From the UHGV virus genome UHGV-0341486: a stretch of DNA of 34,556 nucleotides. One strand, given 5' to 3'. Origin of the DNA: a virus. The translations under genes and the position numbers were made by a program. Shown one piece after another: positions 17,337 to 20,861 of this stretch. Under the pieces are notes generated by a model. That model was not told the DNA's origin, searched no databases, and saw only the letters and a list, made by a program, of their open reading frames with translations. Within the stretch, counting starts at the first letter, position 1. Each line of letters opens with the position of its first letter.

Positions 17337-17799
17337 TCCTCAGCGTAAAGCCTTCCTCGATATGTTGGCGTGGTCAGAAGGAACGGATAACGGGCGACAA
17401 CCGACACGTAACCACGGTTATGATGTTATTGTTGGCGGCGAACTGTTTACTGATTACTCCGATCACCCTCGCAAACTTGTCACGCTACACCCCAAACTCA
17501 AATCAACAGCCGCCGGACGTTATCAGCTTCTTTCACGCTGGTGGGATGCTTACCGTAAACAGCTTGGTTTGAAAGACTTCTCCCCCAAAAGCCAGGACGC
17601 AGTGGCATTACAGCAGATTAAAGAGCGTGGTGCTTTACCGATGATTGATCGCGGTGATATCCGTCAGGCAATCGACCGTTGCAGCAATATCTGGGCTTCA
17701 CTGCCGGGCGCTGGTTATGGTCAGTTCGAGCATAAGGCTGACAGCCTGATTGCAAAATTCAAAGAAGCTGGCGGAACGCTCAGAGAGAGTGAGGTATGA
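17323..17799 (+). CDS. R: Endolysin R (lytic transglycosylase), 158 aa
   Basis: Near-identical to recalled lambda R (…[49 protein letters not shown]…). Confidence 0.95.
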
Positions 17800-18257
17800 G
17801 CAGAATAACCGCGATTATCTCCGCTCTGGTTATCTGCGTCATCGTCTGCCTTTCATGGGCGGTTAATCATTACCGCGATAACGCGATTACCTACAAAGCC
17901 CAGCGCGACAAAAATGCCAGAGAACTGACGCTGGCGAACGCGGCAATTACTGACATACAGATGCGTCAGCGTGATGTTGCTGCGCTCGATGCAAAATACA
18001 CGAAGGAGTTAGCTGATGCGAAAGCTGAAAATGATGCTCTGCGTGATGATGTTGCCGCTGGTCGTCGTCGGTTGCACATCAAAGCAGTCTGTCAGTCAGT
18101 GCGTGAAGCCACCACCGCCTCCGGCGTGGATAATGCAGCCTCCCCCCGACTGGCAGACACCGCTGAACGGGATTATTTCACCCTCAGAGAGAGGCTGATC
18201 ACTATGCAAAAACAACTGGAAGGAACCCAGAAGTATATTAATGAGCAGTGCAGATAG
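17796..18257 (+). CDS. Rz: Spanin inner-membrane subunit Rz (153 aa)
   Basis: N-terminal transmembrane segment plus coiled-coil; matches recalled lambda Rz. Confidence 0.92.
18016..18198 (+). CDS. Rz1: Spanin outer-membrane lipoprotein subunit Rz1 (60 aa), embedded in the +1 frame of Rz
   Basis: Lipobox (…VVVGC), proline-rich stretch; entirely nested within Rz as in lambda. Confidence 0.9.
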
Positions 18258-18261
18258 AGCT

Positions 18262-18277
18262 GCCCATATCGATGGGC
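18262..18277. other. Palindrome GCCCAT-ATCG-ATGGGC between the convergent Rz and bor genes (possible bidirectional terminator hairpin)
   Basis: Perfect 6-bp inverted repeat; no strong T-tract on either side. Confidence 0.4.
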
Positions 18278-18288
18278 AACTCATGCAA

Positions 18289-18582
18289 TTATTGTGAGCA
18301 ATACACACGCGCTTCCAGCGGAGTATAAATGCCTAAAGTAATAAAACCGAGCAATCCATTTACGAATGTTTGCTGGGTTTCTGTTTTAACAACATTTTCT
18401 GCACCACCACAAATTTTTGCTGCATCGACAGTTTTCTTCTGCCCAATTCCCGAAACGAAGAAATGATGGGTGATGGTTTCCTTTGGTGTTACTGCTGTAG
18501 GTTTGTTTCCAACAGTAAACGTCTGTTGAGCACATCCTGTAATAAGCATTGCCAGAGCGGCAGAAAACAACATTTTTTTCAT
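18289..18582 (-). CDS. bor: Bor lipoprotein (serum-resistance outer-membrane lipoprotein), 97 aa from MKKMLFSAALAMLITGC…
   Basis: Near-identical to recalled lambda Bor; lipobox LITGC. Confidence 0.92.
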   Translation of the reverse strand: MKKMLFSAALAMLITGCAQQTFTVGNKPTAVTPKETITHHFFVSGIGQKKTVDAAKICGGAENVVKTETQQTFVNGLLGFITLGIYTPLEARVYCSQ

Positions 18583-19062
18583 CTTATTATCCTGCATTGT
18601 TAAAAACGGCAGAATCCTATGTGACAACAATTAAACGATAGTTAAATGGATTGATGAAAATTAAAACTACACAGGTGGGCTCAGACTATTGGAGGAAGTT
18701 GGGGACACTCAGAATCCTGTGGAATGAAATAAACCGGTCTATCCGTCCATTACCCTTTTAGCTGCGCTGTATCGTCGCCGTATTCCCGCATTAACCATGA
18801 CCGTAGCCCGACGGGGAATTCCTTCTGCGTGAGTGTGCGGGAATAATTAAAAACGATGCACACCGGGTTTTTACCGCGTTAATGATTCGCGGGTTTATCC
18901 CGGTGCGATGGTGGAAGAAACAGGAAGCTGTATTACAGAAAGTGCTACTACTGTATCCCGATGCGATGTATGTAATGTGAGTCAGATAATGGCACAGGAT
19001 GTGGTGATGTGGCAGTCTGGAACACAGGATATATTGTCAGAATAAGACCCGTAGGAATAAAA

Positions 19063-19389
19063 ATGAAAAGACGCCTTTTACTACTTTTTCTGTTATCTGT
19101 CCTGGCAGTGGGATGCTCGCAGCAAAAAGCTGATGAGCCCCGGCAATTAGTGACGGTGTATCCACGATATCCGGAATATGCTGCAGCAAATTATATCAAG
19201 GGGCTGGTTGAGGTTAAGTTCGATATTGGTGCTGATGGGACTGTGACACGGATCGTTTTTCTCCGCTCAGAGCCTCATAATTTGTTTCGTGATGAAGTGG
19301 TGAAGGCCATGGCGAAATGGCGATTTGAAAAGAATCGCCCCTGTCAGGGAGTGAAGAGACAATTTATCTTTACGCCGTCACGTCCTTGA
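19063..19389 (+). CDS. Probable lipoprotein with a TonB C-terminal-like domain (108 aa from MKRRLLLLFLLSVLAVGC…)
   Basis: Signal peptide with Cys lipobox; C-terminal region (…VTVYPRYPEYAAANYIKGLVEVKFDIGADGTVTRIVFLRSEPHNLFRDEVVKAMAKWRFE…) resembles the TonB C-terminal domain fold motif; AGGAA ribosome-binding site. Confidence 0.6.
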   Translation: MKRRLLLLFLLSVLAVGCSQQKADEPRQLVTVYPRYPEYAAANYIKGLVEVKFDIGADGTVTRIVFLRSEPHNLFRDEVVKAMAKWRFEKNRPCQGVKRQFIFTPSRP

Positions 19390-19511
19390 TGCTTCCAGGT
19401 AGAGAGGGGCTGGAAGCAGGAGAAAAATGAAAGAGCCAGCGGTTATATTTTTGTCATGGCTGACGAGGAATGATGGAAGAAGGCGTTGTATGCCACACAA
19501 CGCCTCACTGT

Positions 19512-19691
19512 TCATTTCTTCTTTTTCTCTGGTGGAACCCGATGAATAAGAGTTGCACTGGTTTCCGATGAGATGGCGATATACTCGGGCAAAGTATGCT
19601 GGCAGTTTTCCAACTGGTCAAAAATACCTGCTCTCGTCTGTTGCAATGCCTGCAGCATGCGGCGGCAATGCGCCTTGCTTTTACTAACCAT
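19512..19691 (-). CDS. Small hypothetical protein (59 aa from MVSKSKAHCRRM…, poly-Lys C-terminus)
   Basis: Strong ribosome-binding site (GAGGAAGGAAAG) before the internal ATG; the longer 117-aa form in the ORF track overlaps the neighbouring gene. Confidence 0.4.
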   Translation of the reverse strand: MVSKSKAHCRRMLQALQQTRAGIFDQLENCQHTLPEYIAISSETSATLIHRVPPEKKKK

Positions 19692-19752
19692 CTTTCCTTC
19701 CTCTATCAGTCGCTGCGTGAACTCATCATGGAATACCAGGTAAATGCGGATG

Positions 19753-20004
19753 TTATCGGTTTTGGCTACGCAGCATAGTACAAAACGGACAGGTGCATCC
19801 CGGGACGGGGGAGGCGTCACATGTCCCTGTGATGGTTGTTCCGGGTAATGTACTGTGTGGGGCATAAAAATGTCCGATAATTTTACTTTCTACCGCAGTT
19901 AGTTGATTCGTTGGTCCTGGTAGCACATTGGGCGAGGATTTAAATGCCAGGCAACTGAAGGATGATGTCGCAAGGGAGATAGCGAGAATATTTCTGATTT
20001 TCAT
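19753..20004 (-). CDS. Small secreted Cys-containing hypothetical protein (83 aa from MKIRNILAISLATSSFSCLA…)
   Basis: N-terminal signal peptide; GAGG ribosome-binding site; the upstream 23 codons of the tracked ORF are probably not translated. Confidence 0.5.
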   Translation of the reverse strand: MKIRNILAISLATSSFSCLAFKSSPNVLPGPTNQLTAVESKIIGHFYAPHSTLPGTTITGTCDASPVPGCTCPFCTMLRSQNR

Positions 20005-20099
20005 TTGATGATGCCTCTGTGTGAAATGACGGTAAACGACGCACTTGTGCCGGCACATAATAGCAAGCACCATAATAGATCAGATTCGATTCTTGCTGT

Positions 20100-20340
20100 A
20101 AGTGATAATTATTCTCGTTTTCGGGTCCTTTCCGTCGATCCAACAGGTTACGGGGCGGCGACCTCGCGGGTTTTCGCTATTTATGAAAATTTTCCGGTTT
20201 AAGGCGTTTCCGTTCTTCTTCGCCGTAACTTAATGTTTTTATTTAAAACACTCCCTGAAAAGAAAGGAAACGACAGGTGCTGAAAACGGGCTTTTTGGCC
20301 TCTGTCGTTTCCTTTCTCTGTTTTTGTCCGTGGAATGAAC
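20100..20340 (+). other. cos: Cohesive end site cos: cosN 12-nt cohesive end GGGCGGCGACCT at 20153-20164, flanked by cosQ (upstream) and cosB (downstream)
   Basis: Sequence …CAACAGGTTACG|GGGCGGCGACCTCGCGGGTTTTCGCTATTTATGAAAATTTTCCGG… matches the recalled lambda right-end/left-end junction. Confidence 0.9.
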
Positions 20341-20341
20341 A

Positions 20342-20861
20342 ATGGAAGTCAACAAAAAGCAGCTGGCTGACATTTTCGGCGCGAGTATCCGTACTATTCA
20401 GAACTGGCAGGAGCAGGGAATGCCCGTTCTGCGAGGCGGTGGGAAGGGTAATGAGGTGCTTTATGACTCTGCCGACGTCATAAAATGGTATGCCGAAAGG
20501 GATGCTGAAATTGAGAACGAAAAGCTGCGCCGGGAGGTTGAAGAACTGCGACAGGCCAGCGAGACAGATCTCCAGCCAGGGACTATTGAGTACGAACGCC
20601 ATCGACTTACGCGTGCGCAGGCCGACGCACAGGAGCTGAAAAATGCCAGAGACTCCGCTGAAGTGGTGGAAACCGCATTCTGTACTTTCGTGCTGTCGCG
20701 GATCGCAGGTGAAATTGCCAGTATTCTCGACGGGATCCCCCTGTCGGTGCAGCGGCGTTTTCCGGAACTGGAAAACCGACATGTTGATTTCCTGAAACGG
20801 GATATCATCAAAGCCATGAACAAAGCAGCCGCGCTGGATGAACTGATACCGGGGTTGCTGA

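Follow-up and report, generated by a model that had tools for sequence, protein, structure and literature searches.

A small gene of a lambda-like Escherichia coli prophage encodes a 108-amino-acid (aa) predicted lipoprotein built on TonB's C-terminal domain, and this gene is under purifying selection. From its sequence and a structure model, the protein is certainly a TonB C-terminal domain and is not a TonB. We judge the chances evenly balanced that it acts as a decoy near the outer membrane, where it would compete with TonB for TonB boxes.

The window, that is, the whole stretch of 34,556 nucleotides that was analyzed, is a lambda-like prophage of E. coli, with integrase (289-1431), repressor, O/P replication genes, Q, S, R, Rz/Rz1, terminase, and tail genes. 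The TonB_C gene is co-directional with the late operon. The original prediction of an open reading frame (ORF) of about 108 aa between bor and cos was exact in its limits, with the ATG at 19063 and the stop codon ending at 19389, and correct in its placement, the bor/iss gene lying to the left on the opposite strand and cosN to the right (Table 1). The translation of the bor/iss gene was a 100% match to a site annotated as iss by PGAP in strain NGF1. In phage 21, cosQ is annotated just 5' of cosN; the nu1 start in the window is at 20342.

Table 1. Features of the TonB_C lipoprotein gene and its surroundings in the window
Feature	Position	Strand	Basis
Rz spanin gene with embedded Rz1 (18016-18198)	17796-18257	+	ORF list; phage 21 i-spanin/o-spanin annotation
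bor/iss lipoprotein gene, left neighbor of the TonB_C gene	18289-18585	-	Pfam Lambda_Bor, E = 1e-30
Conserved noncoding block, possible structured 5' leader	18763-18936	+	75-80% identity between two E. coli clades
Ribosome-binding site AGGA, 6 nt 5' of the ATG	19053-19056	+	Sequence reading; phage 21 annotates an RBS at the equivalent place
108-aa TonB_C lipoprotein CDS, stop included	19063-19389	+	ORF, translation, Pfam TonB_C (E = 7e-13)
Predicted lipoprotein signal peptide, residues 1-18, MKRRLLLLFLLSVLAVGC, lipobox L-A-V-G-C with Cys18, Ser at +2	19063-19116	+	PROSITE-type pattern match
Short tether of residues 19-25 (SQQKADE), modeled with low confidence	19117-19137	+	pLDDT <50 for residues 17-21, ~52 for block 11-20
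TonB C-terminal domain, residues 26-103 (E. coli TonB 153-230)	19138-19371	+	phmmer alignment, model superposition
cosN cohesive-end sequence GGGCGGCGACCT, right limit of the cargo region	20153-20164	+	Exact match

Other features of the prophage were also recorded. The early/nin region holds two cargo genes, one for a 1,183-aa inverse autotransporter, an adhesin of the intimin/invasin type (9540-13091, + strand; IAT_beta, E = 4e-101, plus Big_1 repeats), and the other for a 347-aa alpha/beta hydrolase (13128-14171, - strand; BD-FAE), so that the prophage is loaded with envelope and virulence-type genes. Directly 3' of the TonB_C stop codon, at 19391-19417, there is an 8-bp inverted repeat (GCTTCCAG...CTGGAAGC), which was rejected as a canonical terminator, given that neither strand has a T-run 3' of the repeat. 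Between the gene and cos, the annotations of the segment 19515-19778 are in conflict: on the + strand, a 60-aa ORF (19596-19778) is annotated by PGAP and in the phage 21 record, and a match to PHROG 4843 (E = 3e-46) falls on the overlapping 59-aa product of the - strand (19515-19691). A match to the Fur-box consensus at 15 of 19 positions, a score reached by 2 of 300 shuffles, was located beside cosQ at 20104-20122. This site is about 100 nt 5' of a - strand ORF (19756-20007) for an 84-aa protein with a signal-peptide-like N terminus, for which no Pfam, PHROG, or PADLOC match was obtained.

The resemblance of the C-terminal segment to TonB, put forward in the original prediction, was clear in profile searches. 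The protein scored 49.2 bits against Pfam PF03544 (TonB_C; cutoff, 24.6 bits) and 47.4 bits against TIGR01352 (cutoff, 27.1 bits). Its best NCBIfam matches were the enterobacterial TonB equivalogs, which were matched over their last ~85 positions only (about 150 to 240 of the model) and with no more than 69 bits against cutoffs of 265 to 448. A phmmer search of all PDB sequences aligned residues 23 to 103 with residues 150 to 230 of E. coli TonB without a gap (E, ~1e-14), 33 of the 81 aligned positions (41%) being identical.

Structure prediction was in agreement with this assignment. The AlphaFold model obtained with 26 sequences reached a pLDDT of 86.7, with values above 90 over most of residues 28 to 105, and it superposed closely on TonB bound to its transporters (rmsd of 1.1 Å and TM score of 0.92 for BtuB-bound TonB, 2GSK_B; 0.9 Å and 0.91 for FhuA-bound TonB, 2GRX_C; TM scores normalized to the target). 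Over 2GRX_C, 2GSK_B, and 1U07 together, the Foldseek comparisons gave target-normalized TM scores of 0.90 to 0.92 and rmsd values of 0.9 to 1.5 Å, and the model has the alpha/beta fold of the solved TonB domains. A first model, built on six closely related sequences, was of low quality (pLDDT of 61), and its best PDB matches were nonetheless all TonB domains. Superposition on the intertwined TonB dimer 1IHR failed (rmsd, 18 Å). The hallmarks of TonB_C are also present, namely, the YP motif Y36-P37 (Y163-P164 in TonB) and G59 (G186 in TonB); G59 is invariant in all the family alignments, and Y36 and P37 vary little or not at all. To judge from its sequence, the protein cannot transduce energy, because it has neither an N-terminal transmembrane anchor for coupling to ExbB/ExbD nor a proline-rich spacer, and thus has no link to the proton-motive force.

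Cysteine scanning of TonB residues 150 to 239 had identified only seven functionally important residues, Y163, F180, G186, F202, W213, Y215, and F230, of which the last three are poorly conserved among TonBs generally and well conserved in enteric bacteria (PMC3005593). The equivalents in the phage protein are Y36, F53, G59, F75, W86, F88, and F103, and we counted all seven as kept. None of them varies in the close E. coli family; among exported relatives of 30 to 44% identity, six of the positions are invariant or nearly so, and F53 alternates only with Tyr. In contrast, the side chains that contact FhuA or BtuB in the crystal structures are not conserved (Q160 to Y33, V225 to K98, V226 to R99, K231 to T104, R204 to D77, and N208 to K81), with conservative changes at two other contacts (L229 to I102 and R212 to K85). 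The fold and the functional aromatic core have thus been preserved, whereas the side chains contacting the TonB box and the barrel have not. Binding to TonB boxes is nonetheless plausible, because it occurs by backbone strand addition to beta-3, and its specificity may differ; given the divergence of the contact side chains, it would depend on strand pairing through the backbone or on an altered specificity.

The N terminus has the features of a lipoprotein, in accordance with the original prediction of a LAVGC lipobox. A positively charged n-region, a hydrophobic core, and the lipobox cysteine are all present, and residues 8 to 18 matched a PROSITE-type lipobox pattern. Sorting of the lipoprotein to the outer membrane is predicted from the Ser at position +2. 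All the family members seen have Ser, Thr, Ala, or Val at that position, and never Asp. The lipobox cysteine is kept in most members, including the lipobox-bearing clades of prophage contigs, while in a few relatives the lipobox gives way to an ordinary signal peptide, so tethering to the outer membrane would not be universal.

An identical gene is present in the classical phage 21 (CPT_21_73, annotated "TonB C-terminal domain protein"), in phages ev017 and Perceval ("TonB fragment"), and in the ECOR prophages PhiR47_2, PhiR57_1, and PhiR63_2, the first of which matched the window at 99.8% over the region. The gene was found in 1,225 of 5,426 complete E. coli genomes (~23%), with at least 99% identity in 1,203 of them, and PGAP names the identical protein "TonB family protein" (WP_000830178.1). 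The object is therefore already public and annotated, and the kinds of protein concerned, TonB-domain proteins and phage lipoproteins aimed at TonB-dependent transporters, are known. In PHROGs, the protein falls in phrog_1267, labeled "Rz-like spanin" and placed in the lysis category. This label is probably a misannotation, because the phage has a true Rz/Rz1 pair upstream and the protein is a TonB_C lipoprotein of globular form.

Another E. coli clade, with about 70% identity, occurs in Stx1a-converting phages and many prophage contigs. An exhaustive profile search added further proteins of ~107 to 133 aa that align from the signal peptide through the C terminus, the distant relatives coming from IMG/VR viral contigs and one Klebsiella prophage, with Rahnella, Erwinia, and Serratia also among the source names. 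In the E. coli loci with matchable flanks and in the Klebsiella prophage, the gene lies on the late-operon strand, after holin, endolysin, and spanin and before terminase, a position that is constant although the flanking lysis and terminase genes are diverse. A collection of species-representative genomes gave a single match, a 418-bp contig of an actinobacterial (Modestobacter) assembly with a 100%-identical E. coli-type sequence, which is probably contamination. Since this was the only match in that collection and a fold search of BFVD with the model gave no significant structural match, the family is essentially a prophage family of Enterobacterales. The dN/dS ratio was 0.11 to 0.13 between the two E. 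coli clades and 0.06 to 0.26 within clades. The gene is thus genuine and under constraint from purifying selection, rather than a fragment in decay. In the prophages of strains NGF1 and M45, the tail-fiber genes are broken (as is Rz in NGF1), and the TonB_C gene and sitABCD are intact, together with iss, which is annotated in NGF1.

Regarding the wider prophage, sitABCD was located at the icd attachment site, 3' of the tail-fiber genes, in all four informative records of the phage 21-type prophage (PV340567.1, 41857-45306; locus L136, 7485-10934; locus L137, 6822-10271; and OL657228.1, from 21967, with sitD, sitC, and sitB, read to 24000). Decay was apparent in sampled E. coli prophages (L003, 1234-1695; L136, 4752-6456; L137, 4128-6149), in the form of an internal stop in rzpD and truncated tail-fiber genes. 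The svsR small RNA of an icd-integrated lambdoid prophage was set aside as a different element, sited in cI.

The promoter of its own that had been attributed to the gene was not confirmed. A sigma-70 scan of positions 18200 to 20400 gave no site on the + strand, but it was also empty where the bor promoter is expected and is therefore insensitive. Likewise, no Fur box was found within three mismatches across the window, the best match 5' of the gene (11/19) being at the level of chance. In both E. coli clades, the gene is accompanied by about 300 nt of upstream sequence, the left edge of which, at ~18762, is a mosaic boundary where the flanks diverge. This segment includes the conserved block of Table 1, ~130 to 300 nt 5' of the gene, which may be a structured leader: the + strand folds into two hairpin domains, better than shuffled sequences do (z = -2.6), and the changes between clades are one-sided wobble changes of the C-to-U type that keep pairing on the + strand, with no compensatory pair. 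In an nhmmer search, the block was found in the two E. coli clades only and was absent from the other clades, and Rfam returned only subthreshold chance matches over 18200 to 20400. A small ORF on the - strand (18750-18863) was rejected as coding, as the changes by codon position (12/6/8) show no third-position bias and two loci carry a frameshift.

The best-supported hypothesis for this gene is a periplasmic mimic of the TonB C-terminal domain that would occupy TonB boxes and so keep out TonB-dependent phages or colicins or change the uptake of siderophores. It is favored because the fold matches that of transporter-bound TonB, because the seven functional residues are kept, and because the periplasmic TonB domain is reportedly inhibitory when overexpressed: as summarized in PMC9841981, which cites Howard, Herrmann, Stratilo, and Braun (2001), overexpression of this domain inhibits iron import via TonB-dependent transporters. 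In this decoy model, the domain would be held at the outer membrane on a tether of ~8 to 10 residues and would dock nonproductively on the TonB boxes or the periplasmic face of TonB-dependent transporters or, alternatively, on the TonB boxes of group B colicins as they enter. Such docking would compete with the scarce, energized TonB of the host, lowering sensitivity to agents that need TonB energy, such as T1/phi80-type phages, colicins B, D, Ia, and M, several microcins, and albomycin. The price would be some loss of siderophore and B12 uptake, and, on balance, the gene would favor the lysogen as cargo for exclusion or immunity of broad spectrum. The presence of the intact gene in decaying prophages and its near identity in 1,203 genomes also argue for such a benefit.

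Some considerations weigh against the decoy. Among them are the divergence of the contact side chains, the plain signal peptide of some relatives, and the failure to find a + strand sigma-70 promoter or an upstream Fur box for a gene co-directional with the late operon, which makes expression in the lysogen only putative. Blockade of TonB would be paid for in iron uptake, and the inhibition by the TonB domain, in the account given in PMC9841981, required overexpression.

Many phages that use TonB-dependent transporters as receptors need no TonB energy, so the antiphage spectrum could be narrow. A literature search found no experiment or study on the function of this TonB_C lipoprotein; a 2024 review of superinfection exclusion lists Cor and nothing TonB-like, and the PADLOC-DB 2.0 defense models gave no match to the 108-aa protein at E ≤ 0.1.

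Other explanations were weighed against the same evidence. The TonB machine itself is an unlikely target, although the phenotype would be the same as that of a decoy and only the partner would differ: the protein would bind host TonB at its C-terminal domain, or ExbD at its periplasmic domain, and hold TonB unproductively at the outer membrane. TonB C-terminal domains homodimerize in vivo and in crystals and contact ExbD, and the residues involved in the dimer and ExbD contacts (F202, W213, Y215, F230, and G186) are kept in the phage protein, whereas those facing the transporters have diverged. Nevertheless, the short outer-membrane tether makes ExbD an improbable partner, and the model resembles the monomeric, transporter-bound form rather than the intertwined dimer. 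There is little probability, in our estimation, that the protein is a late envelope factor associated with lysis, which would bind peptidoglycan or outer membrane proteins and modulate envelope breakdown, or would be a spanin-like factor. The position directly after holin, endolysin, and spanin on the same strand, conserved in the E. coli and Klebsiella loci examined, would fit such a role, as would the filing of PHROG 1267 under lysis and the failure to find a separate promoter. Yet the phage already has a complete Rz/Rz1 pair, the globular TonB_C fold differs from that of an unstructured, proline-rich o-spanin, and the Rz-cos interval is a classic cargo site that also houses bor/iss; furthermore, persistence of the intact gene in prophages with broken Rz and tail-fiber genes is hard to explain by lysis.

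A modulator of iron traffic that serves host fitness or virulence, by damping or rerouting TonB-dependent uptake or FecA-type signaling, seems improbable as well. Its appeal lies in the company that the gene keeps: the TonB-independent Fe/Mn importer sitABCD in the same prophage (phage 21, PhiR47_2, and both of the informative E. coli genomes in the sample), the serum-resistance gene iss as immediate neighbor, and the inverse-autotransporter adhesin in the window. But the pairing with sit is known from the phage 21-type clade only, no Fur box precedes the gene, and it is not obvious how reduced siderophore uptake would help in the host. Finally, the idea that the gene is a nonfunctional remnant of a captured tonB is strongly disfavored and very improbable. 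Older records do carry annotations such as "partial tonB-like" and "TonB fragment," and two thirds of TonB is missing; against this stand the low dN/dS values within and between clades, the grafting of a new lipoprotein signal peptide that has been kept across clades, a length of ~107 to 133 aa conserved in several genera, and the near identity of the gene in so many genomes.

The decoy can be extended to the family as a whole, in a form that we find possible but rather doubtful: this widespread family of prophage lipoproteins would consist of outer-membrane-tethered, energy-dead TonB mimics that bring about a pan-transporter shutdown, protecting lysogens against TonB-dependent phages, group B colicins, and microcins, with the iron cost offset by SitABCD in the phage 21-type prophage. 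The sitABCD genes may offset a TonB blockade. Mimics of this kind would add to Llp and Cor a third, mechanistically distinct class of phage lipoproteins that target TonB-dependent transporters, and would be a case of a phage turning part of a host machine into a dominant-negative inhibitor. The gene is present in about 23% of complete E. coli genomes, beside the virulence-associated iss and sitABCD. If the decoy operates, prophages would have a simple and broad route to alter host sensitivity to TonB-dependent phages, colicins, microcins, and siderophore-linked antibiotics, iron acquisition would be affected in pathogenic strains, and the protein would represent an inhibitor, evolved in nature, of the contact between TonB and its transporters, itself pursued as a drug target. 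If there is no such effect, this would be an ordinary cargo gene with a recognizable domain.

Compared with known systems, the phage protein is most readily set beside the C-terminal domain of E. coli TonB (about residues 150 to 239; 1U07, 1XX3, 2GSK, and 2GRX), which it resembles in fold, in the YP motif, and in the seven residues, while its C terminus is four residues shorter. Full-length TonB differs in having an uncleaved N-terminal transmembrane anchor (with His20) for ExbB/ExbD, in place of which the phage protein has a cleavable lipoprotein signal peptide, and a proline-rich, periplasm-spanning spacer, whereas only residues 19 to 25 separate Cys18 from the domain here. Engineered periplasmic TonB fragments (Howard et al., 2001, as cited in PMC9841981) are likewise periplasmic TonB domains without the energy-coupling anchor; they are laboratory-made, soluble, of E. 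coli TonB sequence, and overexpressed, whereas the phage protein is natural, predicted to be lipid-anchored, and 59% diverged. With Rz1-type o-spanins it shares a small lipoprotein gene in the lambdoid lysis region, but those proteins are short, proline-rich, and unstructured and work with an i-spanin partner, and the globular phage protein is encoded by a gene neither embedded in nor paired with an i-spanin gene. Llp of phage T5 and Cor of phi80, N15, HK022, and mEp167 are small outer membrane lipoproteins that act on FhuA from the periplasmic side, and the protein studied here is also a small predicted outer membrane lipoprotein. By analogy, they may serve as a precedent, phage lipoproteins on the periplasmic face of FhuA being an established exclusion strategy. 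In fold and sequence, Llp and Cor are unrelated to the TonB_C fold of the phage protein, for which the profile scans gave no Llp or Cor family, and their action is FhuA specific and allosteric, whereas for a TonB mimic one would expect action on many transporters via their TonB boxes.
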